Part shown: in pieces, positions 11,642 to 49,123 of the stretch | Layout: each line of letters begins with the position of its first letter | How positions within the stretch are numbered: position 1 is the first letter of the stretch | Source: Dehalococcoidia bacterium | GTDB lineage: Bacteria; Chloroflexota; Dehalococcoidia; GIF9; AB-539-J10 | Length of the DNA: 64,000 nt | Direction of reading: 5' to 3' | Assembly: GCA_034431195.1 (NCBI GenBank) | Contig: DAOUDP010000025.1 | Location: forward strand, 20,220 to 84,219 | Translations under genes and position numbers: made by a program | Notes under the pieces: model-generated | What the model saw: only the letters and a program-made list of their open reading frames with translations | What the model was told of the DNA's origin: nothing | The model's database searches: none

Positions 11642-12421
11642 TCATGGTAACCGATATGTCTCCTCATTGAATTCTTTCACTTCCTTATGGCTATCCAGTA
11701 ACACAATGTGAACTTCTTCGGGACCTTGAGCACGGAGCAACGGTGCTCCAGGTATGTCGGCGGTAGTGCTTCTGCCGCTAATGTAAGTGATGTAGGTTGG
11801 CATCTTCTTTCCTGCGGCATTTTTACTAAGTAATTTCAGGATTGTAGCACCATCGTTCAAGCTGGAAACCAGCTTTTCACAGCCAATCATTGCCACATGT
11901 ACGGGGGGCAAGGTGGCAATCAGGCGGCTGTTCCCTTCATTGTCTATGATAACTAGAGTTCCACTTTCAGCTATGGCAATATTGGCTCCAGAAATACCCA
12001 TATCTGCATTGATAATAGACTGCCTCAAATAGTGACGTGACGCCTGCAGTAGAATCTCGGGGTCAGGTTCCAATCTTTCACCAATGGCTTTGGAAAGTAA
12101 CTCAGCTACCTGTTCTATATTTTTTTGTATTCCCTGGCTTACCAGAGGCGGAAGTTCCTCTCCCGCCAATTGAGCAACCCACTCTCTGAGGTCTGTTTCT
12201 ATTACCTCAATGTCAGCATTCTCAAGGTGTTTATTCAATCCAATCTCCGTGGCTACCACAGACTTCGACTTGACTACTCGTTGCACGTTACGTTCTCGTC
12301 CCAGCTTCACGACATAATTATTAGCATCCGCGGCACTTTCGGCCTCGTAGATTATCGCACCAACCCTGATAGCTTGTATCTTAAATTGCTCTACCAGTTC
12401 CGGCGTTGATATGGCAGTTAT
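11642..12421 (-). CDS. Stand-alone LUD-domain protein, paralog of the LutB N-terminal domain (probable ATA start at 12421; ORF-track start is GTG 12310)
   Basis: Aligns with 9096-11270 (YEA..A.DANNY..KL..ERNV.RVVKSKS, GISGANIAIAE.GT); frame open to 12421 with GGAGG 7 nt upstream. Confidence 0.8.
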   Translation of the reverse strand: MTAISTPELVEQFKIQAIRVGAIIYEAESAADANNYVVKLGRERNVQRVVKSKSVVATEIGLNKHLENADIEVIETDLREWVAQLAGEELPPLVSQGIQKNIEQVAELLSKAIGERLEPDPEILLQASRHYLRQSIINADMGISGANIAIAESGTLVIIDNEGNSRLIATLPPVHVAMIGCEKLVSSLNDGATILKLLSKNAAGKKMPTYITYISGRSTTADIPGAPLLRAQGPEEVHIVLLDSHKEVKEFNEETYRLP

Positions 12422-12521
12422 CTTTAAACCTCCAATCCAAGAAATTGCAAAATGCTATGTTCTTGTTTCCCTGGTAAAGTTCTGTGCCACAGGTTCAGGT
12501 GCTTGAGATGTCCAGCCTGCT

Positions 12522-13127
12522 TCACTGTGCCACAAGCTCCATGCCCTTGTTGAACGCCACCATATTGGTATCAAATTTTTCCCCAGGAAAGCTTTCCCGC
12601 AACACTAATTCCATCGATTTCTTATCAATGGGGAAGATGCCAGAGCCAACTAAAGCACCGATGAGTATCATATTGGCGAAGATAGGGTCACCCAGTTTCA
12701 TTGCTTCATCAGTGGCATTTATCAGCCATGATTTAGCTGATAATCCTTCGATAGCCTCGACGATCTTATCCAGGCTTGGGTATTCCATCCCAGCGGCATG
12801 TATCAGTCTGGAGTTGGCTATGGTGATAACATCGGAATTTCCGAATTGCTGCAGTATTCGCAGAGTTTCTACAGGTTCCATGCCAAGGATGATATCAGCA
12901 CGCCCATTGGGAATAAACGGGCTATACTCAGTTTCCCTCGAGATTCTCAAATGGCTCATAACACTGCCGCTTCGTTGAGATGCCCCATATGTTTCTCCAA
13001 TGGTCACGAAGTACCCTTCCCTTATGAATGCTTTACCGATAAGCAGTGATATCATCACGTTTCCCTGTCCACCAACGCCAGCGATAATTAAATTGAGTGG
13101 GTCTTTCGTTAATGTCTTCATAATCAT
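12522..13127 (-). CDS. iorB: Indolepyruvate:ferredoxin oxidoreductase beta subunit
   Basis: AGVGGQGN, GASQRSGSV.SH, NMILIGAL; ATGA overlap with the iorA stop. Confidence 0.9.
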   Translation of the reverse strand: MIMKTLTKDPLNLIIAGVGGQGNVMISLLIGKAFIREGYFVTIGETYGASQRSGSVMSHLRISRETEYSPFIPNGRADIILGMEPVETLRILQQFGNSDVITIANSRLIHAAGMEYPSLDKIVEAIEGLSAKSWLINATDEAMKLGDPIFANMILIGALVGSGIFPIDKKSMELVLRESFPGEKFDTNMVAFNKGMELVAQ

Positions 13128-15067
13128 ACTGCCTCCCTGATAATGGCACCTTGCGGGCATATATCTGCGCATACGCCACAGCCGGTGCATATTGTTTCAT
13201 CTATGGTAGCTTTGCCACTTTCGCTATCCCATACCATTCCCGGGCAACCGAACACCCTGGTGCATAGTCTATCGCAGCCACAGGCTTCCCCCAGGCACTT
13301 ATCACGGTCAACATGTACCTTGTACGGAGGTTTCTTGTCCCTCCTTCCTCTCACCAACTCGCACTCGCGGCGCATTATCACCACTCGAGGGCCTCCGTCT
13401 TGAGCTATGGCCTTTAGCAGCGTTGCCGTGCTATTCTCAAGGTCAAACGGGTCACAGACCTCAACCTGTACTCCTAACGAATGGCACAAAGCTTCCATAT
13501 CTACAGCTCTTGTTGTTTCCCCCATACCAGTCACTCCCGTTCCAGGATGAGGTTGGAAGCCAGTCATGGCAGTGGCATTATTATCCAGGATGACGAGAGT
13601 AAAATTTGATTGGTTATAGATACCATTTATCAGTGCTGGAATTGCGGCATGGAAGAAAGTAGAATCACCGCACACAGCGAGCACCGGTTGATTGAAGCCA
13701 AATTGCCCCAGCTTTCCCAATCCATTAGCTACGCCAGCACCTGCTCCCATACAATACATTGTTCGCTCTTGAAAGAAGCCGGCGGGACCTATTGCCAGGG
13801 TGTAGCAGCCAATGTCACCGGTAACAAACCCATCACGCCGATCCAGCCTGAGTGCGTTTTTGATTGCCCAAAAAGCAGCTCGATGGGGACAGCCCGGACA
13901 GAAAGTCATAATTCGCGGTGGCATGTAGGTTATAGGAACTTGTTCTGCCTTTTTACTATATTCTGGGTCGCGAGGTTGGTAAGCAAGACCCATTATCTTA
14001 GCTATTGCCTCGATAACCAGGTCAGGATTTAGCTCTCCGTAGGCATTTATATGCCCGGAGTGCTTACCGTAGAATGTAGGATGGGGTGTGCCAGGCGGTA
14101 GGTCGGCAACCAGCTCTTTTATGCTTCCTTCCAGGAAAGGATCGATCTCCTCCACCATCAGTATTTTCTGCGATTTACCTAGATGTAGCTCAATGAGTTT
14201 TTGTGGTAGCGGCCAGATGGTGCCCAGCTTCAAGATGCCCACCTTGCTCTCCAATTTCAACGCCTTCACCGCCTCTAAAGAATAGAGCCAGCAGCTACCA
14301 CCGGTTATGATTAACAATTCTGCCTCTTCCGGCCCCGTGTACCAGTTGAAAGGCGATGATTCGAATAGATCCTGTGCCTTATCCAGTTTTGCGTGCAATT
14401 GGCTATGTAACCATGCGCTTGGGTATGGTATGAATTTGGGCAAGGTGGGCACAACGGGACATATGCTGTCGAAATGTGCCTTTTGCTCCTTTTTGGGCAA
14501 CTCACCCAATGTTACGTTGCCTCTGGCGTGAGCAATGCGTGTTACGCTTCGTATCATGCATATACTATTTAATTCCTCGGCGAGGTCGAAAGCCCATTTT
14601 GTCATGTCCTTGGCTTCCTGGAAGGTGGCTGGTTCCAGGAGGGGGATATCCAGCCACTTAGCTATGTTCCTCAAATCCTGTTCATTGGAGCTGGATAGAG
14701 CAGATGGATCGTCGCAAGATACCAGAACCAACCCGGCGCCTATGCCGCTCATAACGAGGTTGGCCAGGAAGTCAAAGGCAACATTCACCCCGTTCTGCTT
14801 CATAGAAGTGATTGCTCGAATGTTGGCGAAAGAGGCACCAGCAGCAACTTCCAACGCCACCTTTTCGTTAACAGACCATTCGGCGTAAAAATTCATTTCC
14901 TTAGCCACCGATATCAGGCTCTCCATTATCTCCGTTGAAGGTGTCCCTGGGTAAGCACTAGCAAGCCCTATGCCTGCTTCGAGTGCCCCGCGAGCAATAG
15001 CTTCGTTGCCGATGAAAAGCTGGGTGCTGCCGGGAGCATCTAATCCAACGCCTGACATACTACTCAC
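13124..15067 (-). CDS. iorA: Indolepyruvate:ferredoxin oxidoreductase alpha subunit
   Basis: GNEAIARGA, YPGTPSTE, NEKVALE, FCPGCPH, GDIGCY, GDSTFFH TPP motif, DN..TAMTG.QP, C-terminal ferredoxin. Confidence 0.93.
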   Translation of the reverse strand: MSSMSGVGLDAPGSTQLFIGNEAIARGALEAGIGLASAYPGTPSTEIMESLISVAKEMNFYAEWSVNEKVALEVAAGASFANIRAITSMKQNGVNVAFDFLANLVMSGIGAGLVLVSCDDPSALSSSNEQDLRNIAKWLDIPLLEPATFQEAKDMTKWAFDLAEELNSICMIRSVTRIAHARGNVTLGELPKKEQKAHFDSICPVVPTLPKFIPYPSAWLHSQLHAKLDKAQDLFESSPFNWYTGPEEAELLIITGGSCWLYSLEAVKALKLESKVGILKLGTIWPLPQKLIELHLGKSQKILMVEEIDPFLEGSIKELVADLPPGTPHPTFYGKHSGHINAYGELNPDLVIEAIAKIMGLAYQPRDPEYSKKAEQVPITYMPPRIMTFCPGCPHRAAFWAIKNALRLDRRDGFVTGDIGCYTLAIGPAGFFQERTMYCMGAGAGVANGLGKLGQFGFNQPVLAVCGDSTFFHAAIPALINGIYNQSNFTLVILDNNATAMTGFQPHPGTGVTGMGETTRAVDMEALCHSLGVQVEVCDPFDLENSTATLLKAIAQDGGPRVVIMRRECELVRGRRDKKPPYKVHVDRDKCLGEACGCDRLCTRVFGCPGMVWDSESGKATIDETICTGCGVCADICPQGAIIREAV

Positions 15068-15089
15068 CTCCTTAAACTTGCCTCCATTT

Positions 15090-16202
15090 CTAAGCTAACA
15101 GCCTGTCAATTATGCTCTGTTGGAGACCAACATAAAGTAGATTGCTTCTATCGCCACTCCTGGTGATGATTTGCTGTAGCGCTCGTTTTTTCTTAAGTAA
15201 AGATGCCTCCTTGAGGTGAGCTAGATTCTCAGGAGGAAGGATATCAACTTCAAGCTTCCCCTTTTCCTTAGCCATCTCGATCAGTTGAGCACCGACATCA
15301 GTGCGGACAATAACGGTGTTCCATCCCTCAATACCTTCCACTGAGCCTACTGAGATATCGGCAAACTCCGAAGTCATATCCAGGCAGTAAGCACAGGCAG
15401 GCATGACAAACCTCCTGATTTCATCCAGTGGAAACGAAATTCTATCTGATGGAGTGTACGCTTCAAATATATTTGCCGGAGGAGGTGGGATATCAAATTT
15501 AGTCACCTGTGGTAAGTTGAGATTTTCCTTTAAGAATTGATGGAATCCGTCAGGGGACAAAGCCCAGGTGCAAAACAATCCGACTACTAGCTTCACATTG
15601 CCTATGTTCACTCTGTTTTGTGGTGGTTCTTCCCTCATCTTGCTCAGTGCTAAGACCTGGCAGGGCATAGCTACTACCGCCAGTCGCTGTTCACTATCCT
15701 TAGGAATCCCATTTAGAGCCTGTAATACAGGACAAGCCATATAATTGGAGCCAGCACATTTCAGCATCTCCTCCCTGCTTCGAGCTAAGAAAACGCTCGG
15801 GGTTTTATCATCGGACATCTTTGTCAGGATTGCACCGTCAATAAATCCCTCCTCCAGTGCCAATGATAAAAGCGTAGTTACCGTTCCGCCATATTGTCCC
15901 CTCTCCTTAATGCGTCCATCCGTTGACCTTGCCATCAACACTTCCTTGGTGGTTCCCAGTCCATCACCGCTATATGGCGTTCCAAAAACTCGCTGGCTAA
16001 TCGCATCCATGTCAGTGTAAGTTCGTGGACAGTACTGATAACACTGCCCTTGTGAAAGGGTACAACTATCCAGGAGCACTATCCTGCCTTTGTAGGAAAC
16101 TAAGTAAGGACAACCACTGGCACATGCACCACATAGAGTGCATAATCCGGCATCTATAACCTCCGTGAGCAACTCCTTGGAACCTTTGACTTTCATATCC
16201 AT
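15090..16202 (-). CDS. F420 hydrogenase/dehydrogenase beta subunit (FrhB/FdhB)-like flavoprotein with N-terminal [4Fe-4S]
   Basis: CTLCGACASGCP, GQYGGTVT, MPCQV, GLFCTW, CAYCLD...EFADISVG, GWNTVIVRT. Confidence 0.85.
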   Translation of the reverse strand: MDMKVKGSKELLTEVIDAGLCTLCGACASGCPYLVSYKGRIVLLDSCTLSQGQCYQYCPRTYTDMDAISQRVFGTPYSGDGLGTTKEVLMARSTDGRIKERGQYGGTVTTLLSLALEEGFIDGAILTKMSDDKTPSVFLARSREEMLKCAGSNYMACPVLQALNGIPKDSEQRLAVVAMPCQVLALSKMREEPPQNRVNIGNVKLVVGLFCTWALSPDGFHQFLKENLNLPQVTKFDIPPPPANIFEAYTPSDRISFPLDEIRRFVMPACAYCLDMTSEFADISVGSVEGIEGWNTVIVRTDVGAQLIEMAKEKGKLEVDILPPENLAHLKEASLLKKKRALQQIITRSGDRSNLLYVGLQQSIIDRLLA

Positions 16203-16443
16203 AGTTTGTTCCTTTCACACGAGATTTCCATCTTCATTGCCTTCTTCGTGTCACTGTGAATTGCTTCTATTGTGCCATCCCGGAATTTAGGTAGTAACAT
16301 CTTCTCTGTGACCAGGTGTGAATGAATATCGATTGTCGTTTCCTATCCCTCAGCTTGTTTTGTGTATTTTATCACGTATCTTCCTCAAAGAGACATCCCT
16401 GTACTCGTTTAAATATGATGAGTGACACAAGCCTCCTCTTTCT

Positions 16444-16640
16444 GTCATTGCGAGGAGTGATAGCGACGAAGCAATCTCAAGTTGAAGCACTAAATTCTAA
16501 ACAAATCCTAATATCCAAATTCAAAACTCAAAACATCCTTGGTCATTTGGATTTTGGTCATTTGATATTGTTTAGCATTTCGGATTTAGGGTTTAGAATT
16601 TCGTTTTTCTGAGATTGCCACGCCTTCGGCTCGCAATGAC
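16444..16640. repeat. Composite repeat: GTCATTGCGAG REP pair enclosing a 7-nt-periodic AAATCC/TTTGG element
   Basis: REP at 16444-16478 and inverted REP at 16609-16640; the core 16484-16605 has an A-rich heptamer arm followed by a T-rich heptamer arm. Confidence 0.8.
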
Positions 16641-16923
16641 GTGTGGGAGGACTTGCACAGAGCAAAGAATTGTTTGAGCCCCAAATTTAAGCTCAAAATA
16701 GGACATAATCTTCATACTTTGAGGTGTCACCTATCTATCTGAACTAGATCAACCCCTGGCGCTGTATAAAATGATAAAATGGGGATGTGTTTAGCATCCG
16801 GCGGCATGTGCTGCTGATATTCCTTCCTATTGAGTTGGAAGAGTGAATGCGCCATGTGCTAACTCTTAGAGGGGGGATTTTTGCTTCACAGATTCAGACT
16901 AAGGCTTGTAAGGAGGTGTCTTT

Positions 16924-17793
16924 ATGAATGCCAATGATCATCCTTTGCTTGAGACAAATAAGGTCATGCTGATTGCTGGGGTTTACGATGTTTTATCGGC
17001 CAAGATTGCTCAGTGTGTTGGATTCCCTGCTGTGGTGGTGACGGGATATGGAGTGTCGGCAAGCTACCTGGGCGAGCCTGATTTTGGCCTTTTAACTCAA
17101 AGCGAAATTCTGGATGTAGCCCGGCGTATAGTTCAGGCCGTAGATATTATGGTCACAGTAGATGTTGATACCGGTTACGGTGGTCCTTTAAACGTGCAGC
17201 GTATGGTTAGGGAACTACTAAAAATCCGAGCAGGCGGGATGATACTTGAAGATCAACGATGGCCAAAGCGTTGTGGCCATATGCGGGGTAAAGAGGTTAT
17301 TGGTGCAGAAGAACATGCCATGAAAATCCGTGCTGCCAAAGACGCCGCAGGCGAAAGCCGGTTCATTGTCACTGCTCGCACCGATGCCCTCGCTACTCAC
17401 GGTGTGGATGAAGCGATTAGAAGAGCTAGGCTCTATAAGGAAGCTGGGGCTGATGTACTGTTTGTAGAAGGACCACGTAATAAAGAAGACCTACGCTGTA
17501 TTGGCGGAGAACTACCGCCACCTTTGGCAATCAATATGATTGAGGGAGGGGTTACCCCTGTATGCAGTCTGGAGGAACTATATGAAATGGGCTTTTTTGT
17601 CGTTGGCTATGTGCTTACCGGTCTATTTGCCGCTGTAAAGGCTCTGGAAAGAGTGTTCATTACTCTAAGAAAGGAAGGGGGAAGCTCCTCTATTACCAGC
17701 GACCTGATGAGTTTTGAAGATTCTAACAGTATGGTTGGTCTCGAACAGCGCTATCAAGAGTATGAGAAATATAGGATAGAAAGCGAATTATGA
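16924..17793 (+). CDS. Isocitrate lyase/PEP mutase superfamily C-C lyase (methylisocitrate/dimethylmalate lyase-like)
   Basis: YDVLSA, DVDTGYG, LEDQ.WPKRCGH, ARTDA, GADVLFVE; AAGGAGG RBS. Confidence 0.88.
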   Translation: MNANDHPLLETNKVMLIAGVYDVLSAKIAQCVGFPAVVVTGYGVSASYLGEPDFGLLTQSEILDVARRIVQAVDIMVTVDVDTGYGGPLNVQRMVRELLKIRAGGMILEDQRWPKRCGHMRGKEVIGAEEHAMKIRAAKDAAGESRFIVTARTDALATHGVDEAIRRARLYKEAGADVLFVEGPRNKEDLRCIGGELPPPLAINMIEGGVTPVCSLEELYEMGFFVVGYVLTGLFAAVKALERVFITLRKEGGSSSITSDLMSFEDSNSMVGLEQRYQEYEKYRIESEL

Positions 17794-17886
17794 AGCGAGT
17801 GCAGGCTTGCCTTTCCTAAAATATGAGCAGCTCGGCTATTTATGCACAACGAAGCACCATGATAAGATAAACAAAAACAAAATTGA

Positions 17887-17908
17887 GCCGGTAGAGGGCC
17901 GGTAGAGG
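17887..17908 (+). repeat. 11-bp tandem duplication GCCGGTAGAGG x2
   Basis: Exact copies at 17887-17897 and 17898-17908. Confidence 0.8.
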
Positions 17909-17977
17909 ATATGTGGGGATTGAAAAGCCCGTGACTAGATTATCTACGGAAATAAAGAAACGAAAGGAGGCAAGAAA

Positions 17978-20026: not shown

Positions 20027-20063
20027 TTTCCACGGCGTTAATAAAAATGAGCGGGAGGTTAAT

Positions 20064-32574: not shown

Positions 32575-32659
32575 GGGGAAGTGTCGGAATTGGCAGACGA
32601 GCATGACTTAGGATCATGTGCCGTAAGGCGTGGGGGTTCGAATCCCCCCTTCCCCACCA
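32575..32659 (+). tRNA. tRNA-Leu (anticodon TAG)
   Basis: GGGGAAG/CTTCCCC acceptor stem, CATGA-CTTAGGA-TCATG anticodon arm, long variable arm, GGGGG-TTCGAAT-CCCCC T arm, encoded CCA. Confidence 0.97.
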
Positions 32660-33036: not shown

Positions 33037-34695
33037 TTGTATTCTAAGTTTATGGCTAGAATGAGAGATCCAGCAGCTCAACAAACTACTAAGACTGTGG
33101 GATTTGACATGAACTTGCATGACCTTGTCGGTGGCTTAGAGGACGAGCTTCTCATCGTCAATAGTGAATATCAAGTCAGCTTTGCTAACTCAGCTATGCA
33201 GCACAGGTTGCCTGAGGGCACTGAATCACCTGTCGGTAGGCATTGCTACGAAGTCTTCGAGGGGAGGGATAAGCCCTGCAGCGCCCCTCTGTGGGAGTGT
33301 CCGCTTAGGGATGTATTGCAGAGCGGCAACTCGGCAAGCGTCATTCATCCTTATCCCTCCCCCAGCGCAGGTAGCACCTTGGGTAGATATGTCAAGATTA
33401 CCATGTGGCCACTCAAAGATAGTCATGGCGGGATTGATGCAGCGGTTGAGTTGAGGAGAGATGTTACTGCAGAGAGAGAACTGGAAGTGCAGATTCTGAG
33501 GCGACATCACCATCTTGATGCTTTAAGCCGTATTTCTTTTGCTGTTAGTGGGTTATGGGATTTAGATGCTATCCTAAATGTAGCATTTGACACCGTGTTA
33601 CAGATCTTTGGCGGAAGCACAGGAGGAATCCTGCTTTTTGATGAAAAAGTCCAAAAGCTATGTTACAAAGCGCACCGTGGCCTTTCTGCCAAATACGCTG
33701 GAGAGATGTGCCTGACCATGGGTGGGGGAATAGCGGGAAAGGTGGCTCAAACGGGTGAGCCTATTTTGTTGGAAGATATTTCTAGAGATCCAGATGCTGC
33801 TCGCCCTGATTTGATAGCCGCAGAGGGTCTTAAGGGATTCGTTAGTGTCCCTTTGAAAGCAAAGGACAAGGTTTTGGGCGTGATGAATGTTGCCAGCCAT
33901 CTGGCGGGCAAATTCACCTCAGATGATATGTACCTCCTGAACTCAATTGCTTGCCAACTTGGCACGGCAATCGAGCAGGCAAAGCTATATGAACAGTTGA
34001 GTGAAGGAAAGGAAAGATACCAGATACTGCTGAGGCAGGCTCTTACTATCCAGGAACAGGAGCGAAAAAGAATTGCCAGAGAGCTACATGATGAAACAAG
34101 TCAAGAGCTTACTGGCTTGGCGCTCAACCTGCAGGCAGTTAATGAAATGATGGAAATGGGCGGCGTCGAAGATGCTGAAATTAAGGCAATATTGAAAAAG
34201 ACTCAGTCCCTAGCAGTCCATGCAGGCACCGAGTTAACCAAGCTCATAAGGGAGCTCCGCCCCACTCTATTAGATACATTGGGGCTGCCCGCTGCTATTC
34301 ATCAGCTTGCCGAGGCTAACCTCAGTTCTCAAGGCATTAATGTGTCATCAGAGTTTGGAGGAATTGACCGGAAGTTACCGTCGGAAATTGAGTTGGCGTT
34401 TTTCCGCATTACCCAGGAGGCTATGAGCAACATTATAAAGCATTCAGAGGCAAAGAATGCCAGTATCAAAATAGAATGTAATGCTAAAAGATGTATTTTA
34501 CGGGTTGAGGATGATGGCAAGGGGTTTGATGTTGGCAAGATCACAAGCATTGACAGGAGAGGTCGTGGTGCTGGCCTATTCGGCATGAAAGAAAGGGTAA
34601 AATTAGTAAGCGGCACTTGTTCTATTGATTCCCAGCCTGGGCAAGGGACTAGAGTTATCGTCAAGGTTCCAATAAGGGGGAGCGCAGCCGATTGA
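33037..34695 (+). CDS. PAS-GAF sensor histidine kinase (HisKA_3/NarX-UhpB type)
   Basis: PAS with CYEV..PC..CP, GAF, ERKRIARELHDE, QEAMSNIIKHS, DDGKGF, GLFGMKER. Confidence 0.93.
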   Translation: MYSKFMARMRDPAAQQTTKTVGFDMNLHDLVGGLEDELLIVNSEYQVSFANSAMQHRLPEGTESPVGRHCYEVFEGRDKPCSAPLWECPLRDVLQSGNSASVIHPYPSPSAGSTLGRYVKITMWPLKDSHGGIDAAVELRRDVTAERELEVQILRRHHHLDALSRISFAVSGLWDLDAILNVAFDTVLQIFGGSTGGILLFDEKVQKLCYKAHRGLSAKYAGEMCLTMGGGIAGKVAQTGEPILLEDISRDPDAARPDLIAAEGLKGFVSVPLKAKDKVLGVMNVASHLAGKFTSDDMYLLNSIACQLGTAIEQAKLYEQLSEGKERYQILLRQALTIQEQERKRIARELHDETSQELTGLALNLQAVNEMMEMGGVEDAEIKAILKKTQSLAVHAGTELTKLIRELRPTLLDTLGLPAAIHQLAEANLSSQGINVSSEFGGIDRKLPSEIELAFFRITQEAMSNIIKHSEAKNASIKIECNAKRCILRVEDDGKGFDVGKITSIDRRGRGAGLFGMKERVKLVSGTCSIDSQPGQGTRVIVKVPIRGSAAD

Positions 34696-35344
34696 GAAGA
34701 TAAGAGTGCTGGTGGTGGATGATCACACCATCGTGCGGGATGGCATCTGCGCTTTGCTGGCGTTGGCTGCAGACATAGAGGTGGTTGGCGAAGCAGAAAA
34801 TGGTAGGGAGGCGCTGGATAAGGTAAGACAGCTTGCCCCGAATGTGGTGCTTATGGATATAGCCATGCCTATTATGGATGGGCTGGAAGCGACACGTAGA
34901 ATACGCAAGGAATTCTCAAAAACAAAGGTGTTGGTGCTAACCCAATATGCTGAGAAGGAGTATATTTTCCCCATTATCGAGGCAGGAGCCCAAGGCCTCA
35001 TAAGCAAGGCAGCGGCATCTTCAGAGCTTACTTCGGGCATAAGGGCTGTCCACCAGGGCGATTCCTTCCTTTCTCCTGTCGCAGCAAAGGTTTTCGTTGA
35101 GGACTATCAGCGAGGAACTCCTGGGCGAGAAGAAGGAGATCCTTACCGCCAGCTGACAGACAGAGAAAGAGAGGTACTCAAGCTAGTTGCCGAGGGGTAT
35201 ACTACCAAGGAAATAGCAGATTTATTAGTAGTCAGCACGAAAACGGTGGAAGGACACAAGACCAATTTAATGGCTAAACTGGACATCCACAATAAGGCTG
35301 ACCTCGTCAAGTATGCCATACGCAAGGGCATCATAACTGTCTGA
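34691..35344 (+). CDS. NarL/LuxR-family response regulator (probable ATT start at 34691; GTG 34706 alternative)
   Basis: KIRVLVVDDH, LMDIAMP, LTDREREVLKL..EG.TTKEIA..L..S.KTV..H. Confidence 0.93.
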   Translation: MEKIRVLVVDDHTIVRDGICALLALAADIEVVGEAENGREALDKVRQLAPNVVLMDIAMPIMDGLEATRRIRKEFSKTKVLVLTQYAEKEYIFPIIEAGAQGLISKAAASSELTSGIRAVHQGDSFLSPVAAKVFVEDYQRGTPGREEGDPYRQLTDREREVLKLVAEGYTTKEIADLLVVSTKTVEGHKTNLMAKLDIHNKADLVKYAIRKGIITV

Positions 35345-39246: not shown

Positions 39247-39320
39247 TTTTTAGCGAAAATGGCTCGTGGGTCGAGCGGGCTAATCAAGTCTAAGGAGGGA
39301 GGAAAGGAGGGAAAATAATA

Positions 39321-40121
39321 ATGGGAAACGCCAAAAAAGTCTTAATCGTAGACGATGAACCCGATTTTCTGTTAGCTTTGCAGAGGACTATGGAAGCAAG
39401 ACAATATCAGGTTACTACTGCCAGCAACAAGGCAGAGGCACAGGAAGGAATCAAGAAAGAGGAGCCCGATATCATCATTCTGGGCACAATGACTCCCCGT
39501 GGAGAAGCATTCTCGCTGCATCAATGGTTAAGGCAACATCCCGGGACTAGGGACTTGCCTATCCTGGTGGTCGACGCTGCCCCGGAAAGGCAACTTATCA
39601 AGGGGTGGAGAAGGGACGAGGCTGTGATGATGGAGGCTGAGGACTACATAACCAAGCCGATTGAACCAGCTTCACTAGCGCTTCGAACCCAGGCGATACT
39701 GGAGAGAGCAGCCAAACGGATAAAAGTGCTCATAGTGGATGACCATTCTGTGGTCAGGGATGGGGTTCGTGCTGTGCTCATGCTGCAAAAAGACATTGAG
39801 GTAGTAGGTGAAGCTGTGGATGGGAAAGATGCAGTGGAGAAAACAGGCCAGCTCTTGCCTGACGTGGTGGTAATGGACATAGTCATGCCTGTAATGGACG
39901 GGTTAGAGGCCACTAAGCAGATATACAAGGAATATCCTCAAATCAGAGTTGTGATGCTGTCACAGTACGATGACGAGGAGAACGTCGCTGCCGCTGAGCA
40001 GATAGGAGCCTATGGATTCATCCCTAAGAGGGCGGCCAGCTCCCAACTCATAAATGGCATAAAAACCATATACTATATGGGAGAGCATCTCCAGAGACCC
40101 GCAAAAGTTTCTAGCGACTGA
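39321..40121 (+). CDS. Tandem receiver (REC-REC) protein without output domain
   Basis: N-terminal VLIVDD...IIILGTMTP (no phospho-Asp); C-terminal VLIVDDH...VVVMDIVMP. Confidence 0.85.
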   Translation: MGNAKKVLIVDDEPDFLLALQRTMEARQYQVTTASNKAEAQEGIKKEEPDIIILGTMTPRGEAFSLHQWLRQHPGTRDLPILVVDAAPERQLIKGWRRDEAVMMEAEDYITKPIEPASLALRTQAILERAAKRIKVLIVDDHSVVRDGVRAVLMLQKDIEVVGEAVDGKDAVEKTGQLLPDVVVMDIVMPVMDGLEATKQIYKEYPQIRVVMLSQYDDEENVAAAEQIGAYGFIPKRAASSQLINGIKTIYYMGEHLQRPAKVSSD

Positions 40122-41917: not shown

Positions 41918-42958
41918 TTGATGGGAAGCAGCAAGAGGTTAGCTGAAGATTTCCAATCTTACCAGCAGAGGATAGAAGCAGGGCTGAAGGAGATTATTGG
42001 TAGCAATCCTCTCACTTTTTATGATGTATTGCGATACCACATGGGGTGGCAGGATGAGCAGGGTTGCCCTTGCCATCGGGAAGCGGGGAAGTTTATTCGT
42101 CCTCTCCTTTGCTTGCTTAGTTGCCAGGCAGTAGGAGGGGATGCAAGGCGGATAATGCCTGCCGCGGCAGCGCTAGAGCTCATTCATAATTTCTCCTTGA
42201 TTCACGATGATATTCAAGATGCTAGCTCCGAACGCCATCACCGTCCCAGTGTGTGGAAGATATGGGGTCAGTCACAGGCGATAAACGCCGGCGATGCCAT
42301 GTTTGCCCTGGCCTTCTCAGCCTTGTTCAAACTAAGGTATAATGGTATAGACGAGCAAAAGGTAGTGACTGCGGCTCAGTTATTAAATAAGGCTTGCCTG
42401 GAGCTTTGTGAGGGGCAATATCTTGATATTGCTTATCAAAGCCGTCTTGATGTCACTATGAAGGACTATCTTGATATGATAGCTAAGAAGACAGCAGCGT
42501 TAATGGCAGCATCAACTGCTATAGGGGCATGTTTGGCTGCGGATGGTGATAAGGTGGTGGATTCTCTCTATGGGTTTGGTAAAGAGCTGGGTATGGCTTA
42601 TCAAATTCAGGATGATGTATTGGGTATCTGGGGAAAGGAGGAGGAGATCGGGAAGCCGGTGAAAGAAGATATTTCACGGAGGAAGAAAACATTACCGGTG
42701 GTCTACGCCTTTGAGAATTGTGAGGATAGTGGCCGTGAAAAACTAGAGGAGCTTTACTCACAGGAAGTTATTTCAAATGATGATGTTGCCATAGTGGTGG
42801 AAATCTTGGACTGCTCAGGGGCGCGCAAACATGGTGAAAAGTTGATACGACGATATCATCGTCAAGCTCTGGCGAAATTGGGAATAAGCAGTTTAGATTT
42901 GTCATGTCGGACTCCGTTAAAGGAGATGGCGAGCTTTTTGTTGGAACGCGACTACTAG
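41918..42958 (+). CDS. Polyprenyl (geranylgeranyl) diphosphate synthase
   Basis: GKFIRP, HNFSLIHDDIQD..RH, NAGD, GQYLD, KTA, QIQDD.LG, KKTLP. Confidence 0.93.
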   Translation: MMGSSKRLAEDFQSYQQRIEAGLKEIIGSNPLTFYDVLRYHMGWQDEQGCPCHREAGKFIRPLLCLLSCQAVGGDARRIMPAAAALELIHNFSLIHDDIQDASSERHHRPSVWKIWGQSQAINAGDAMFALAFSALFKLRYNGIDEQKVVTAAQLLNKACLELCEGQYLDIAYQSRLDVTMKDYLDMIAKKTAALMAASTAIGACLAADGDKVVDSLYGFGKELGMAYQIQDDVLGIWGKEEEIGKPVKEDISRRKKTLPVVYAFENCEDSGREKLEELYSQEVISNDDVAIVVEILDCSGARKHGEKLIRRYHRQALAKLGISSLDLSCRTPLKEMASFLLERDY

Positions 42959-42966
42959 GTACAGAG

Positions 42967-44166
42967 ATGCAAAAAAAGACTGTTAAAGGTATGTCCGTTG
43001 AAGGGAAGAGGGTTTTAGTTAGGGTTGATTTCAATGTGCCACTGGATATGGAGACAGGTGCCATTACCGACGATAGTCGTATACAAGCATCACTGCCCAC
43101 CATTAGGTATCTTGTTACGCATAGGGCAAAGGTAATACTTTGCTCTCATCTAGGGCGTCCTAAAGGCAAAGTTGTTGAAGAATTACGGATGGCGCCGATA
43201 GCGCGACGGTTGTCAGAACTTCTGGAGTTGCCCGTTGCGGCCGCTGATGGTTGTGTGGGTGAAGAGGTGAAAAGCAAGGTGGAAATGCTTGGGGAGGGAG
43301 ACGTCCTCCTTTTGGAAAACCTCCGGTTTCACCCTGAGGAAGTGGCAAACGATCCCTCCTTCGCTAAAGAGCTGGCTGAGTTAGCTGATCTATATGTCGA
43401 TGATGCCTTTGCAACCAGCCACAGAGCACATGCGTCTACCGTTGGTGTGGCTCAATATTTGCCAGCAGTGGCTGGTTTTCTGTTGGAGAAGGAATTGCAA
43501 GTATTAGGCTGTTTATTAAGCGAGCCAAAACGCCCATTTGGTTGTGTGGTAGGTGGTGCCAAGGTGAGCGACAAAATGGGGTTACTACAGAACATGTTAA
43601 GATGGGTAGATGTCTTACTTATCGGTGGTGGCATGGCAGCTACTTTTTTGAAGGCGCAGGGGTATGAGGTGGGCAATTCCCCTGTGGAGGAGGACAAGCT
43701 GGATCTAGCTAAGGAGTTATTGCAGGAGGCAGGTGGAGAGTGGACTGCCAAGATTTTGTTACCTGTAGATGTGGTGGTAGCACCAGCAATTACCCGTGGT
43801 ATTAGCAGCCAGCTTGTGTCTATAGAGGGGCTTCCAGCTAATAGTTTCATCGTAGATATTGGAGCAAACACCATTGTGCTTTTTTCAGATGTGTTGGGAA
43901 GATGCCACACCGTTGTATGGAATGGTCCTGTGGGTGTTTGTGAAATGCCTCCCTTTGACCACGGCACCAGGTCATTGGTGAGTGTTCTTTCCACTCTCAG
44001 TAATGCCACCACTATCATCGGGGGTGGCTCCAGCGCCGAGGTGGTTCAGGAAATGGGGTTAGTTGATAGAATGACTCATGTCTCTACAGGTGGTGGGGCA
44101 AGTTTGAGGTTTCTGGAGGGTGCTCCTTTGCCTGGGGTAGAAGCCCTGTTGGATCAGGAAGAATAA
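42967..44166 (+). CDS. pgk: Phosphoglycerate kinase
   Basis: RVDFNVP, SHLGRP, LENLRF, DAFATSHRAHAS, GGAKVSDK, WNGP, STGGGASL; ATG 42967. Confidence 0.97.
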   Translation: MQKKTVKGMSVEGKRVLVRVDFNVPLDMETGAITDDSRIQASLPTIRYLVTHRAKVILCSHLGRPKGKVVEELRMAPIARRLSELLELPVAAADGCVGEEVKSKVEMLGEGDVLLLENLRFHPEEVANDPSFAKELAELADLYVDDAFATSHRAHASTVGVAQYLPAVAGFLLEKELQVLGCLLSEPKRPFGCVVGGAKVSDKMGLLQNMLRWVDVLLIGGGMAATFLKAQGYEVGNSPVEEDKLDLAKELLQEAGGEWTAKILLPVDVVVAPAITRGISSQLVSIEGLPANSFIVDIGANTIVLFSDVLGRCHTVVWNGPVGVCEMPPFDHGTRSLVSVLSTLSNATTIIGGGSSAEVVQEMGLVDRMTHVSTGGGASLRFLEGAPLPGVEALLDQEE

Positions 44167-44178
44167 TAGGACTCTATC

Positions 44179-44946
44179 ATGCGCATTCCTTTAATTGCCG
44201 GTAATTGGAAGATGAACACCACGGTAGCTGAAGCTGAGGAACTTGCTTCTTCTATGCGAGCGAAGTTGGATAAAATAGAAGGGATAGAGAAAGTAGTCTG
44301 TCCGCCGTTTATTTCTTTAACTGCAGTGGGCAGGATACTCCAGGGTTCCTCTGTGAGGTTGGGGGCTCAAAATATGTATTTTGAAGTGAGGGGGGCTTAC
44401 ACTGGGGAGATATCTCCGACAATGCTTAAAGGGCTCGTGGAATTCGTTATCTTAGGGCATTCTGAGAGGCGCTCGTGCTTTGTCGAGACAGATGAGGTAA
44501 TTAGTAAGAAAGTGCAAGCTGCTCTGGATTTCGGACTGAAGCCTATCTTGTGTGTTGGTGAAAGGCTTGAGGAAAATGAAGCTGGTGAAACAGAACGGGT
44601 TATCACTAAACAATTAACGGAAAGTCTAGGTGGCATAAAACCCACCATTAATTTAATTGTCGCCTATGAGCCGGTATGGGCTATTGGCACAGGCAGGGCG
44701 GCTGACGGGTTAACCGCGAAAACCACCATTAAATGTATTCGGGATATCCTTGCCAAGCTTTGGGGTAGCGATGTGGCTCAAGAAGTGCGTGTTCTCTACG
44801 GCGGTAGTGTTACTAGCAACAACATTGCCGAGTTTGTTTCCCAGTCTGAAATCGATGGTGCTTTAGTTGGTGGTGCGAGCCTTAAAGCCGATGAGTTTCC
44901 GAGCATTGTGAGTCAATCGTCCGTGATTAAAAGGCAGGGGGCTTAG
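44179..44946 (+). CDS. tpiA: Triosephosphate isomerase
   Basis: AGNWKMN, GHSERR, AYEPVWAIGTG, YGGSV, LVGGASL. Confidence 0.98.
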   Translation: MRIPLIAGNWKMNTTVAEAEELASSMRAKLDKIEGIEKVVCPPFISLTAVGRILQGSSVRLGAQNMYFEVRGAYTGEISPTMLKGLVEFVILGHSERRSCFVETDEVISKKVQAALDFGLKPILCVGERLEENEAGETERVITKQLTESLGGIKPTINLIVAYEPVWAIGTGRAADGLTAKTTIKCIRDILAKLWGSDVAQEVRVLYGGSVTSNNIAEFVSQSEIDGALVGGASLKADEFPSIVSQSSVIKRQGA

Positions 44947-44964
44947 CTAAAGAGCGTCGAGGCG

Positions 44965-45876
44965 ATGAGATGTCTTGTTGCTATTGTTGGTCCTACAGCG
45001 ATAGGTAAAAGCAAGCTTGCCCTTCGATTAGCTTCCGATCTTGGGGCGGAATTAGTAGGTGCCGATAGCCGCCAGGTTTATCGGTATATGGATATCGGCA
45101 CCAACAAACCTACGCTGGAGGAACAAAAGTCAATTCCTCATCATCTCATTGACGTAGTGAATCCCGATGATGATTTTAACTTGGCGAACTATCTCCACAT
45201 GGCTCGCCGGGTAATCCAGGATATCCAGCAGAGGGGTAAGTTGCCGTTGCTGGTAGGAGGTAGTGGCCTTTATGTCTGGTCGATAATCGAGGGTTGGAAA
45301 ATTCCTAACGTTCCTCCCAACCGAGACTTAAGGCGGAAACTGGAAATTAAAGCGAGGAAGCAGGGCAGTCACGCTCTTTACCAGCAATTGCATGAAATTG
45401 ACCCTGTGATAACGGAAAAGATAGACCCCCGTAATATACGTCGTGTCATAAGAGCTTTGGAAATCCATCAGCTGTCTGGGCAACTCCCTTCGCTAATCAG
45501 GCAAAAACAGGCGCCCCATTCCCCCATTTTAGTTATTGGTTTGACTGCAGAAAGAAGCGAACTTTACCACAAAATTGACCAGCGAGTGGATAAAATGATT
45601 AATAGAGGATTAGTCGAAGAGGTAAAGGAGCTGATGCACAAAGGTTATAGCCTTTCCTTGCCTTCAATGTCTGGCATAGGCTATAAACAGGTTGGTGATT
45701 TTCTTTCTGGCAGCGTGTCGTTGCCTAAGGCAGTGGAGCGGATAAAGTATGAAACTCACCATTTGGCTCGTCATCAATATGCCTGGTTTCGTCCCAGCGA
45801 TGCTAGAATCAACTGGCTTGATGCCAATAATGCCAGGAAAAAGGCGAATGATTTAGTGGAGAGCTTTCTATCATGA
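44965..45876 (+). CDS. miaA: tRNA dimethylallyltransferase
   Basis: GPTAIGKS, ADSRQVY..MDIGT.KP, VGGSGLY, IGYKQ, ARHQYAWF. Confidence 0.96.
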   Translation: MRCLVAIVGPTAIGKSKLALRLASDLGAELVGADSRQVYRYMDIGTNKPTLEEQKSIPHHLIDVVNPDDDFNLANYLHMARRVIQDIQQRGKLPLLVGGSGLYVWSIIEGWKIPNVPPNRDLRRKLEIKARKQGSHALYQQLHEIDPVITEKIDPRNIRRVIRALEIHQLSGQLPSLIRQKQAPHSPILVIGLTAERSELYHKIDQRVDKMINRGLVEEVKELMHKGYSLSLPSMSGIGYKQVGDFLSGSVSLPKAVERIKYETHHLARHQYAWFRPSDARINWLDANNARKKANDLVESFLS

Positions 45877-46736
45877 AATTTCATAAGCTACAGGGTAGTG
45901 GCAACGATTTTATCCTTGTGGATGGCAGAGATGTGGAGCATGATTGGGCAGAATTGGCACGAGCCATGTGTCAACGCCACTTAGGTGTGGGAGGCGACGG
46001 ATTGCTGGTGGTGGAAAGGTCTAAAGTTGCTGATTTGAAGATGCGTGTTTTCAACCCCGATGGTTCTGAGGCTGAAGCATGTGGTAATGGACTAAGGTGT
46101 TTTGTTAAGTATGCTGTTGAACAGGAGATAGCGGATGAAGTGTCACTGCGAGCGGAGCCAAGCAATCCCTGTTTAACTGTAGAAACTCTAGCAGGTATCG
46201 GAAAGGCAAAAGCCTGTGTAGCGGCGAATAAAGTAACGTGGGTTGAGGTGAGTATGGGCATGCCTCGATTTGAGCCTCAACAGATTCCCATCAAAGGGGA
46301 AATTGATATAATACCAATATTGAACTATCCTTTAACCTTGGGCAAAAGGAAGTTGGGTTTGTCTCTTCTATCTACGGGAAATCCTCACGCGGTGTGCTTT
46401 GTCTCTGAACCGGTTGTCAAATTCCCATTAGGGAAAGTAGGTCCGAAGGTGGAGAAGCATCACATGTTTCCGCAAGGGACTAATTTTGAGATAGCAAGGA
46501 TTCTAGATAGAAGGAAGCTAGAAGCTAGAGTGTGGGAGCGTGGCGTCGGGGAGACTTTGGCTTGTGGCAGTGGTGCTTGTGCCATCGCTGTAGCTGCTCG
46601 TTTGCTCAATTATGTTGGCACGGATGTTGACATAATATTTCCAGGAGGAGCTTTAGCGGTATATTGGGATGGGAAAGGTGAGGTAATGCTTGGTGGTCCT
46701 GTGGAGGAAGTATTCACTGGAGAGTGGCTAAAATAA
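45873..46736 (+). CDS. dapF: Diaminopimelate epimerase
   Basis: GSGNDF, GGDG, NPDGSEAEACGNG, GNPHAV, NFE, ERGVGETLACGSGA. Confidence 0.96.
   Translation: MKFHKLQGSGNDFILVDGRDVEHDWAELARAMCQRHLGVGGDGLLVVERSKVADLKMRVFNPDGSEAEACGNGLRCFVKYAVEQEIADEVSLRAEPSNPCLTVETLAGIGKAKACVAANKVTWVEVSMGMPRFEPQQIPIKGEIDIIPILNYPLTLGKRKLGLSLLSTGNPHAVCFVSEPVVKFPLGKVGPKVEKHHMFPQGTNFEIARILDRRKLEARVWERGVGETLACGSGACAIAVAARLLNYVGTDVDIIFPGGALAVYWDGKGEVMLGGPVEEVFTGEWLK
46142..46169 (+). repeat. GTCATTGCGAG-family repeat inserted in-frame in dapF
   Basis: gtcactgcgagcggagccaagcaatccc is 23/28 identical to the reverse complement of 11601-11628; encodes VSLRAEPSNP. Confidence 0.7.
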
Positions 46737-46778
46737 GAAAAATTTGCATCACAATCCCGGCTATCTAGGGGGGAACTA

Positions 46779-47948
46779 ATGCAAGTGACTAAGCGGCTTG
46801 ATAGGTTACCTCGATATCTTTTTGTAGAAATTAACCGAAGGATTGCTGAAAAAAAGGCTGAGGGGGTGGATGTGATCAACTTTGCTGTTGGCGATCCTGA
46901 CTTACCCACGCCGTCTCATATTATTGAGTATATGTGTGAGGCAGCGCATGACCCTGTTAACCATCGTTATCCTGAAACCGCTGGCTTGCCTCAACTTCGC
47001 GAAGCCATTGCTGGATGGTATCGGAGGCGATTTGGGATTGCTCTGGACCCGAGTGGAGAAGTATTGCCACTCATTGGCTCGAAGGAAGGGATTGGACATA
47101 TAGCTTTAGTCTTTGTCGAGGCTGGAGACATAGCTTTAGTGCCTGACCCAGGTTATCCTGTTTACAGTATGGGAACCCTGTTGGCTGGTAGTGAACCGTA
47201 CTTCATGCCTTTGAAGGAGGAAAACGATTTCTTGCCTGATTTTGAAACTATCCCCGAGAATATAGCTAGGCGAGCAAAGCTCATGTGGCTAAACTATCCC
47301 AATAATCCCACCGGTGCTACCACTGAGCTTGATTTCTTTGAGAAAGCAGTTTCCTTTGCCAAGCAGCATAGCCTGGCAATATGTCACGATGCTGCCTACA
47401 CTGAGGTTGCCTTTGATGGCTATAAGCCACCGAGTTTCATGCAAGCCTCTGGGGCTAAGGAAGTAGGCGTGGAATTTCATTCTTTATCAAAAACGTACCA
47501 TATGACTGGCTGGCGAATAGGGATGGTGGTGGGCAATGCTGAAATGATAAATGCGTTGTTTCGAGTGAAGTGCAATCTGGATTCAGGTATTCCTCAGGCA
47601 ATCCAGCATGCTGCTATAAAGGCCCTAAACAGTTCTCAGGAGCATATTTCAGAGCACAATGCTATTTTGCAATGCCGCCGAGATAAGTTAATACAAGTTA
47701 TTAATCAGGTAGGGATGAGAGTGCGAGTTCCTAAAGCTACTTTCTATATTTGGGCGAGTATTCCTCAAGGTTACACCTCCATAGATTTTGCCGACAAGTT
47801 GCTTAATGAAGCTGGGGTAGCGGTGACTCCAGGCATTGGTTATGGAAAGAAGGGAGAAGGCTATATCAGGTTCTCCTTAACTCTTGCCGACGACAAATTG
47901 GAGCAAGGAATAGAACGATTACTATCCTGGCACGGGAGGCAAGAATAA
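46779..47948 (+). CDS. dapL: LL-diaminopimelate aminotransferase (class I/II)
   Basis: GDPD, YP...G...LR, GSKEG, PDPGYPVY, NYPNNPTG, HDAAY, SLSKTYHMTGWRIG; follows dapF. Confidence 0.88.
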   Translation: MQVTKRLDRLPRYLFVEINRRIAEKKAEGVDVINFAVGDPDLPTPSHIIEYMCEAAHDPVNHRYPETAGLPQLREAIAGWYRRRFGIALDPSGEVLPLIGSKEGIGHIALVFVEAGDIALVPDPGYPVYSMGTLLAGSEPYFMPLKEENDFLPDFETIPENIARRAKLMWLNYPNNPTGATTELDFFEKAVSFAKQHSLAICHDAAYTEVAFDGYKPPSFMQASGAKEVGVEFHSLSKTYHMTGWRIGMVVGNAEMINALFRVKCNLDSGIPQAIQHAAIKALNSSQEHISEHNAILQCRRDKLIQVINQVGMRVRVPKATFYIWASIPQGYTSIDFADKLLNEAGVAVTPGIGYGKKGEGYIRFSLTLADDKLEQGIERLLSWHGRQE

Positions 47949-49123
47949 GGCGAAAGACTGTTGCTACACAAGCTGAGCAAGAACGTGTATTTTTAGTTCG
48001 GGTCGAAAGCAGAGCCTCTAGTGATGGTTGGTCTGCAGTTGATTCATTAGAAGAACTATCCTATTTGGCCAAGACGGCTAATGCTGCTGTGGTGGGCAAG
48101 CTCATTCAAAAGCTAGGTAGGCCTTCGCCAGCTCACTATATCGGCAAGGGCAAGATTGACGAGCTATGCAATCTTAAGGAACAAATTCAGTATGATACAG
48201 TGATTTTTGATGACGACTTATCCCCACGACAGCAGAGAAATCTTGAGGAGGTTCTCGAGGTTAAGATTATTGACCGCACTGCACTCATCTTAGATATATT
48301 TGCCAAACATGCTCAGACTCGGGAAGGACAGCTTCAAGTTGAGTTAGCTCAGCATCAATATCTGTTGCCGCGGCTTGTTGGTCAGTGGAGTCACCTGGAG
48401 CGACTTGGTGGTGGAATTGGTACCAGGGGACCAGGTGAATCGCAGTTGGAGACTGACCGCCGTCTTATCCACAAGCGTATTAACCGTCTTGAACGCGAGA
48501 TAGAGGAAATAAGGCGACATCGAGACCTTTATCGAAAGCGTCGTAGGACGAGGGGTATGCCTGTAGTAGCTCTTGTAGGATATACCAATGCAGGCAAAAG
48601 CACTTTATTCAATACTTTAAGCAAAGCAAGCATGGTGGTGAAAGAGGACCTCTTTTCTACTTTAGACCCGGTAACTCGTCGTTTGACCCTGCCTGATGGG
48701 CAGCGGTTTCTAATTACGGATACTGTTGGCTTTATTCATAAATTGCCAACCTTGTTAATCGCTGCATTTCGTGCCACCCTTGAGGAGCTTAGTGAAGCTA
48801 ACCTGCTTGTTCATATAGTTGACATAATGCATAAGAATGCTTCTTATCAATGCCTCGCGGTGGAGAAAATATTAGAAGAACTAAACCTTAATGATAAGCC
48901 AAGGGTCACAGTGTTTAACAAGCTGGATTTGGCCCTGGGCAGTGAGGAAGAACTGGAATGTCTGACCACGGTTCCTTTCCTTGAAGGACAAAGTGGGCTA
49001 TCAAGCGAGAATAGTGTCCCCATCTCCGCTGCTAAAGGCTGGGGCATAAACAAGCTCTTGGAGAAAATAAGTTGCTATTTGGGCAATACCTTGCGGCAAG
49101 GTATGATGGCAAAAACCAGATGA
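47945..49123 (+). CDS. hflX: GTPase HflX (probable ATA start at 47945; ORF-track start 48065)
   Basis: ERVFLV..SLEEL..LAKTA N-terminus, GKGK, DRTALILDIF, GTRGPGE, GYTNAGKS, DTVG, NKLD. Confidence 0.95.
   Translation: MRRKTVATQAEQERVFLVRVESRASSDGWSAVDSLEELSYLAKTANAAVVGKLIQKLGRPSPAHYIGKGKIDELCNLKEQIQYDTVIFDDDLSPRQQRNLEEVLEVKIIDRTALILDIFAKHAQTREGQLQVELAQHQYLLPRLVGQWSHLERLGGGIGTRGPGESQLETDRRLIHKRINRLEREIEEIRRHRDLYRKRRRTRGMPVVALVGYTNAGKSTLFNTLSKASMVVKEDLFSTLDPVTRRLTLPDGQRFLITDTVGFIHKLPTLLIAAFRATLEELSEANLLVHIVDIMHKNASYQCLAVEKILEELNLNDKPRVTVFNKLDLALGSEEELECLTTVPFLEGQSGLSSENSVPISAAKGWGINKLLEKISCYLGNTLRQGMMAKTR

Follow-up and report, generated by a model that had tools for sequence, protein, structure and literature searches.

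Is initiation at ATA and ATT a habit of a whole bacterial lineage, or is it confined to particular genes? The question is raised by a stretch of 64,000 nt (hereafter, the window) of contig DAOUDP010000025.1 from a Dehalococcoidia bacterium (GCA_034431195.1), in which three genes seem to begin at near-cognate codons behind Shine–Dalgarno sequences (SDs): a LUD-domain gene at ATA 12421, a NarL/FixJ-type response regulator gene at ATT 34691, and hflX at ATA 47945. The original prediction had taken them as possible signs of a wide tolerance of ATA and ATT in the lineage. The three sites, with their SDs and their overlaps with upstream genes, proved to be correctly described in position and local detail. 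In our interpretation, nevertheless, the three sites probably have three different histories and express no single lineage-wide property: hflX and the LUD gene would start at ATA, and the ATT of the regulator would be a local change.

The bare combination of an SD with ATA, ATT or ATC (ATH) is not rare in the window, where the motif GGAGG-N4-8-ATH occurs 57 times against 39 ± 6.5 expected, and the case therefore rests on context and not on the motif. Among the 56 open reading frames (ORFs) of the window with at least 100 codons, long 5′ stretches devoid of a canonical start are found only in the LUD gene (48 codons) and in hflX (85 codons).

The proposed start site of hflX

HflX is a ribosome-splitting and rescue GTPase, and ribosome rescue GTPase is also the NCBIfam name for the family. 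From its ATA, the hflX gene of the window comprises 392 codons on the plus strand (47945–49123). The product matches TIGR03156 (GTP_HflX) with 454.5 bits (cutoff 216.75) over residues 15–376 and profile positions 2–348 of 351, and carries the Pfam domains GTP-bdg_N, GTP-bdg_M and MMR_HSR1. The proposed initiation codon (47945–47947) is separated by a 5-nt spacer from the SD GGGAGG (47934–47939), which lies within the 3′ end of the upstream aminotransferase gene (46779–47948), and it shares a 4-nt overlap, ATAA, with the TAA stop of that gene (47946–47948). From the upstream stop to residue 41 there is no canonical start in frame; the first is TTG 48065–48067.

Translation could be supposed to begin at the next canonical codons (TTG 48065 in hflX, GTG 12310 in the LUD gene and GTG 34706 in the regulator gene) and to leave the upstream stretches untranslated. 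Prodigal-type callers do pick these codons, and in the regulator gene re-initiation would allow it (see below). For hflX, a start at the TTG would remove 40 residues and with them 26 positions of the HflX model, as position 2 of TIGR03156 is aligned with residue 15, and the stretch to be discarded shows the third-position-biased variation described below. No SD is present at the downstream sites. We regard downstream starts as very unlikely.

By its HflX homologues, the window belongs to the Dehalococcoidia (Chloroflexota). All close homologues come from metagenome-assembled genomes, and the searches with HflX, the LUD protein and the regulator gave no identical protein, the best identities lying at 92–96%. 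The closest HflX homologues (90–93% identical) have been called at 343–358 residues instead of about 392, two of them (P0002 and P0003) at the site equivalent to TTG 48065. The DNA of close relatives has the ATA, GGAGG 5 nt upstream and the ATAA overlap in five Logan assemblies, one JGI metagenome and three GTDB genomes, the ATA being read in the independent assemblies L001–L006 and L011–L013. The last sense codon of the aminotransferase gene varies among these relatives (GAA, AAA or AGA).

One genome per GTDB species was scanned for hflX, which gave 80 loci with 79 usable sequences. The start position was located through the conserved Phe of the FLV motif, about 16 codons upstream of it, and an SD was called where a GGAGG-type core lies 4–9 nt upstream of the codon. 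The homologous codon is ATA, ATT or ATC in 64 of the 79 species, 59 of them with an SD: ATA was read in 44 species (SD in 43, no SD call in one) and ATT or ATC in 20 (SD in 16, unclear in four). The remaining 15 species have ATG (14) or GTG (one), and none of these has an SD. ATG and an SD are combined in no species, and the association of codon class with SD gives a Fisher p = 2.9e-12, a value that overstates independence as the species are related. In most of the 14 ATG species, the ATG lies at the aligned ATH position or within one codon of it.

Conservation on both sides of the codon was also evaluated. Over 38 distinct sequences from ATA-start species, the GGAGG core of the SD has near-zero entropy, and it is unchanged even though the overlapping residues of the aminotransferase tail vary between species. 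AGGAGG is kept at the nucleotide level whichever frame it is read in, and likewise in the 20 of 44 loci that have no overlapping gene upstream. After the ATA, the mean entropy at codon positions 1, 2 and 3 amounts to 0.60, 0.58 and 1.11 bits, respectively, and this third-position bias reveals coding constraint from codon 2 onward.

If hflX were expressed by fusion, read-through or frameshift from the aminotransferase gene, no initiation codon of its own would be needed. The ATAA overlap would suit such an arrangement, as would the hflX frame of the window, which is open for 45 codons upstream of the ATA. A 4-nt overlap of the ATA with the stop of an upstream gene is found in 24 of the 44 ATA loci; the other 20 have no long upstream ORF ending at the ATA and still keep both SD and ATA. 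In 16 of the 44, an in-frame stop lies at most three codons upstream (directly before the ATA in five of them), again with SD and ATA kept, and it is on these stops that fusion or frameshifting with the aminotransferase was rejected. No slippery heptamer was visible by eye at the junction. Altogether, this route to HflX appears extremely improbable. In 33 of the 44 ATA loci, an in-frame canonical start upstream is lacking as well.

In a neighbour-joining tree, the HflX proteins fall into three groups, namely, ATC/ATT with SD (21 species), ATG without SD (11 species) and ATA with SD (about 45 species). Two large clades are occupied by the ATH state, which has seldom reverted there to a canonical codon; in the ATA group, the reversions are L007, to TTG, and L035, L048, L056 and L061, to ATG. 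In the ATC/ATT group, the third base is C, T or A and never G. As the clades have either ATH with an SD or ATG without one, every species examined has a weak hflX initiation site in one of two builds. This pattern indicates what would be long-term selection for a weak site, made of a strong SD with a weak codon or of a strong codon with no SD. Judged from the alignments, the near-cognate start of hflX appears to be an old, gene-specific trait common to dozens of species, and not a genome-wide one. Of the three near-cognate codons, that of hflX is conserved most broadly, and that of the regulator gene is not conserved. The further suggestion that ATH starts tune expression is, for hflX, in keeping with the weak start seen in both the codon/SD survey and the tree.

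Among public records, the NCBI protein P0094 is the hflX ORF of L020 read from its ATA, so at least one NCBI entry starts there. The JGI, ENA and Logan calls are truncated or, in loci that offer an SD-less TTG six codons farther upstream, begin there.

A conserved motif, TTGACATAA(T)/TTAACATAAT, was noticed about 10–20 nt upstream of the hflX start and resembles a −10 promoter box. It was seen in the ATG clade (L039, L051, L058–L060, L062 and L067) and in the ATC/ATT clade (L064, L071, L073, L078, L080, L085 and L090). If so, the hflX mRNA of the ATG clade would have a very short leader or none and would possibly be leaderless; in the ATH clade, the motif adjoins the SD.

The LUD-domain and response regulator genes

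The second ATA opens, on the minus strand, a LUD-domain gene of 259 codons (11642–12421), which corresponds to the N-terminal domain only of LutB/LdhH-like proteins. Pfam LUD_dom is matched with E = 1e-45, profile positions 1–189 lying on residues 10–242, and of the LdhH model only the LUD part is covered (positions 57–292 of 706). The ATA (12421–12419) follows the SD GGAGG (12433–12429) at 7 nt, and the frame opens 11 codons upstream of it. Read from the ATA, the N-terminus is predicted to be (f)Met-TAISTPELVEQFK. The first in-frame canonical start, GTG 12310–12308, corresponds to residue 38; its use would remove 37 residues and drop the N-terminal part of LUD_dom, residues 10–37.

The matches of the LUD protein are divided into full-length calls (259, 252 and 259 residues) and truncated ones (214–223 residues), of which P0122, P0123 and P0125 were called at the site equivalent to GTG 12310. 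The DNA of the relatives was obtained by a metagenome scan and contig look-ups. Besides the window, eight further contigs, which represent five different sequence variants, combine the ATA with GGAGG at a distance of 7 nt, the ATA contigs being L093, L094–L096, L098 (on the same contig as L010) and L099–L100. L097 has ATG in an otherwise identical context. In L009 and L101, the start codon is TTG, a spacer of about 95 nt is missing, and the gene starts 2 nt after the POR gene. Both the TTG and the ATG orthologues begin exactly at the ATA position, which speaks against a downstream start here too. By this comparison, the LUD ATA is a clade-level state at an apparently bona fide start position, interchanging with ATG and TTG in sister lineages; initiation would take place at AUA with GGAGG 7 nt upstream, and the conservation holds only within one clade.

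About 100 nt separate the stop of the gene for the POR gamma subunit from the LUD ATA in the window (12422–12521, minus strand). The spacer of about 95 nt between the two genes (considered over 12422–12536 of the window and in L093–L100) occurs only in the ATA/ATG lineages. The SD is invariant in all relatives that have the spacer, and the 3′ half of the spacer is almost invariant among lineages whose proteins differ by 7–14%. The spacer is bracketed by a direct repeat, CTTGTGGCACAG (12536–12525) and CCTGTGGCACAG (12493–12482), which suggests that it may have arisen by duplication or insertion. An RNA element was considered for the spacer and rejected: no Rfam family was matched, the fold had z = −0.9, and only two covarying pairs were seen in six close sequences. 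The LUD gene is flanked by POR subunit genes on one side and by a gene for 724 residues on the other, the counterpart of which in the syntenic locus L010 has LUD, Fe-S and CCG domains.

The response regulator presents a different picture. The gene, on the plus strand, has 217 codons from the ATT (34691–35344) and encodes Response_reg and GerE domains. The ATT (34691–34693) lies 8 nt from an SD-like GGGGGAG (34676–34682) and overlaps, as ATTGA, the TGA stop (34693–34695) of the histidine kinase gene (33037–34695). With the product read from the ATT as query, nearly all of the 120 homologues listed have 216–217 residues and 99–100% query coverage, and the 14 closest orthologues among the matches listed (83–96% identical) begin with M-[ERQM]-K-I-[RKS]. 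The closest relative, L091 (96% identical), has the same SD-like sequence and reads GGGGGAGCGTAGCCGATGGAG where the window has ATTGAG, that is, ATG at the position of the ATT; ATG is also found at this position in L092. For this gene, the finding that the original prediction had named as contrary to its reading, orthologues with ATG at the site, was thus obtained. The G-to-T change at 34693, seen only in the window, removed the ATG and at the same time created the early TGA, which shortened the kinase by nine poorly conserved codons (GEDKSAGSG in L091, normally overlapping the regulator gene).

The alternative start GTG 34706–34708, five codons downstream at residue 6, lies 11 nt after the kinase stop, a distance that would allow re-initiation; the SD is 23 nt from this GTG, which has none at a working distance. 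The sequence suggests that the regulator may be expressed weakly from the ATT with its SD 8 nt upstream, from GTG 34706 by re-initiation, or from both. The only shorter call, one of 212 residues starting at GTG (P0281), was considered as a second ATT case and discarded, for its DNA has ATG at the usual position and the short call is the choice of the caller.

It may also be asked whether the three codons are sequencing or assembly errors, or starts decaying in dying genes. The ATT of the regulator, a single base change unique to the window, would fit an error. The ATA codons of hflX and the LUD gene, however, were read again in many assemblies and samples that are independent of one another, and both genes have their full length and score strongly against their families. 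In the regulator gene, the ORF is intact and shares 96% identity with the nearest relative. As an account of the three sites, error or decay is highly doubtful.

The proposed lineage-wide use of near-cognate starts

The original prediction favoured relaxed start selection in the whole lineage, for example through an altered IF3, with many genes starting at ATA or ATT. The presence of three cases in one 64-kb window is in its favour, and it was examined in two ways. In a scan for non-canonical starts, the window and the 80 species loci were combined (1.14 Mb, with 835 non-shadowed ORFs not shorter than 200 codons). In the second approach, ORFs were clustered into syntenic families and aligned, and the codon was read at the consensus start column of each of 18 families, hflX included.

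The 17 families other than hflX contain 447 genes from about 80 species, and no unambiguous near-cognate start was found among them; such a start is present at hflX in about 60 of 79 species, and hflX is the only family of the 18 without a canonical consensus start column. Every ATA or ATC in a consensus column of the 17 families has a canonical codon within 1–12 codons (within three in all cases save one), and these are therefore ordinary start shifts. Besides hflX, only three of the 835 long ORFs appear to need a non-canonical start, namely, the LUD gene of the window, an aminotransferase gene in L021 and a DXS gene in L086. In L021 (minus strand, about 1676), the conserved N-terminus runs from an ATA that follows GGAG at 5 nt, and the next canonical start comes only 51 codons on. 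In L086 (about 1887–1892), only ACG or CTG is available for the conserved N-terminus.

These two additional candidates in relatives (ATA, and CTG or ACG) can be counted for the lineage-wide explanation. The frequency of about 0.4% of long ORFs also exceeds the roughly 0.05% of non-canonical annotated starts in model genomes, where ATG, GTG and TTG make up ~99.95% (10.1101/063800), but that comparison is biased, since callers cannot call ATH starts. A further point in favour is that AUG-to-AUU switches between close relatives almost never happen otherwise (1 in 61,358; PMC5622118). Opposed to these points are the ATG carried by the orthologues of the regulator gene, the absence of unambiguous cases in the 17 families, when hflX alone has them in most species, and the restriction of start-less leaders in the window to the LUD gene and hflX. 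On balance, we consider relaxed selection throughout the lineage unlikely. In the families compared, the near-cognate start phenomenon is, as far as the alignments can tell, specific to hflX and does not extend to the genomes at large. Unusual starts may lie close together in a single window without being a property of the lineage.

Several other ORFs were considered as cases of SD with ATH and set aside. The 127-codon ORF of L019, L033, L045 and L053 has no Pfam match and is probably spurious; in the glycosyltransferase gene of L042, the domains begin after a canonical start; and for DapF in L071, a GTG three codons downstream suffices. The trivial origin of some such motifs can be seen at 39306–39323 of the window (AGGAGGGAAAATAATAATG), where a strong SD is followed by two ATA codons before the ATG of a response-regulator-like gene is reached; this ATG, 10 nt from the SD, is the obvious start. 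With tblastn and an E. coli IF3 query, no match to infC was found in the window or in any fetched locus.

There are a few points that tell against the combination of ATA starts in hflX and the LUD gene with a local change in the regulator. In 11 of the 44 ATA loci of hflX, an SD-less TTG or GTG lies in frame 5–17 codons upstream and is used by some callers. The species are kin, and the HflX tree suggests only about seven switches between ATH and canonical codons. For hflX, both the dependence on IF3 and the efficiency of a few percent are carried over from E. coli. With a start at GTG 34706, which coincides with position 1 of Pfam Response_reg, the regulator would keep its whole receiver domain and lose only MEKIR, residues shared by the orthologues; its ATT might also be a one-base assembly error. 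As a consequence, the claim that conserved N-termini are lost without the ATH starts applies to hflX (model from residue 15, TTG at residue 41) and the LUD gene (residues 10 and 38) and not clearly to the regulator, in which the GTG is at residue 6.

Probable weak initiation of hflX and known parallels

The efficiency of initiation at AUA, AUC, AUU and CUG in E. coli is 1–2% of that at AUG on a strong reporter and 0.02–3% in other set-ups (10.1101/063800). AUU and AUA are impeded by IF3 and are used 1.5- to 5-fold more in mutants of this factor (PMC9723500). What the sequences show is the codons and SDs, how far these are conserved, and the coding constraint; that initiation takes place at the ATH codons, that methionine is inserted there and that IF3 is needed, we infer. 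In hflX, the strong SD (GGAGG or AGGAGG, 5–6 nt upstream) would bring the 30S subunit to the AUA, the initiator tRNA would pair with two of the three codon bases, and proofreading by IF3 should, by analogy with E. coli, hold the output to a few percent of the AUG level. This design would be inherited and gene-specific, with AUA or AUU/AUC and a strong SD in two large clades and AUG without SD in a third. In the clade of the window, the AUA overlaps the aminotransferase stop (AUAA), and part of the initiation is therefore probably coupled to termination.

Conserved near-cognate start codons are, to our knowledge, very few, and infC is the textbook case and the main natural evidence for regulatory proofreading by IF3. 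According to Butler, Springer and Grunberg-Manago in 1987, infC, the gene for IF3, reportedly has a conserved near-cognate AUU start, which renders its translation sensitive to IF3. This AUU is the closest known parallel to the start of hflX, and by analogy we infer IF3 dependence for the latter. Both genes have AUH behind a working SD, encode ribosome-associated factors, and keep the codon across many species without reversion to AUG. The likeness has its limits: the product is HflX (TIGR03156) and not IF3, so that no loop of self-discrimination is implied and the autoregulatory feature of infC is absent; AUA and not AUU predominates; and one hflX clade has switched to AUG without SD. hflX adds a second gene for a ribosome-associated factor, one in which dozens of species retain AUA, AUU or AUC behind a strong SD and none pairs ATG with such an SD. 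A literature search gave no account of non-AUG initiation at hflX, nor of ATA starts in Dehalococcoidia.

A bolder proposition, which we hold to be rather unlikely, is that the AUH codon of hflX acts as a regulatory sensor and does more than set a low level of expression. As IF3 polices AUH starts, the rate at which HflX is made would depend on how much IF3 is present relative to free 30S subunits. A factor of ribosome recycling or rescue would thereby be coupled to the condition of the ribosome pool, in a second, class-wide circuit resembling that of infC. The clade with AUG and no SD would then have swapped to another mode of weak initiation, possibly a leaderless one. Through this gene, a connection of start-codon fidelity with ribosome rescue can be put to the test, and the split among its clades amounts to a clean natural experiment in which selection for weak initiation can be studied.

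A simpler role is illustrated by pcnB of E. coli, the gene for poly(A) polymerase I, the AUU start of which is said by Binns and Masters (2002) to limit a dose-sensitive enzyme. The ATA codons of the LUD gene and hflX may likewise do no more than hold down the amount of protein. The start of pcnB has reportedly been documented for enterobacteria, whereas the state of hflX extends to at least 60 species, with HflX proteins 58–92% identical to that of the window.

Four-base stop/start overlaps of the ATGA type couple the translation of adjacent genes. The ATAA of hflX and the ATTGA of the regulator similarly place the start at the upstream stop, and a single A/G change interconverts ATAA and ATGA with both signals kept. 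The differences are that the start codon here is near-cognate and that the ATA of hflX is also kept where there is no overlap.

Within the same protein family, hflX of E. coli K-12 has an annotated UUG start with GAGGG upstream and thus also a sub-optimal start. UUG is, however, a canonical class I codon, which with GUG gives 10–100% of AUG expression, and AUA belongs to the 1–2% class (10.1101/063800). By comparison between the two, the UUG fits what may be a general pressure for low HflX synthesis. That weaker start codons go with stronger SDs was reported by Belinky, Rogozin and Koonin (2017, PMC5622118), and hflX follows the rule, with a weak codon and a strong SD or a strong codon and a weak or absent one. 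The published trend concerns AUG versus GUG and UUG and is statistical across genes; in hflX, the compensation involves AUH and is all-or-none within one family.

A practical consequence concerns annotation: in the metagenome-derived calls that were inspected, HflX has lost 34–49 residues and the LUD protein 36–45 to callers confined to ATG, GTG and TTG. The anticipated truncation by gene callers is therefore real in these calls (343–358 against about 392 residues for HflX and 214–223 against 259 for the LUD protein).

The surroundings of hflX deserve a brief description. In the window, the order over 44965–49123 is a miaA-like IPPT gene, dapF, the aminotransferase gene and hflX; in E. coli it is miaA-hfq-hflX, a loose linkage of miaA and hflX being common to both. 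The only RNA gene detected in the window by ARAGORN and Rfam is a tRNA-Leu (anticodon tag) at 32575–32659. On the 3′ side of hflX (49268–53408), two adjacent paralogous AMP-binding genes, similar to acyl-CoA synthetase genes, are present, and the pair is kept in all syntenic relatives examined.

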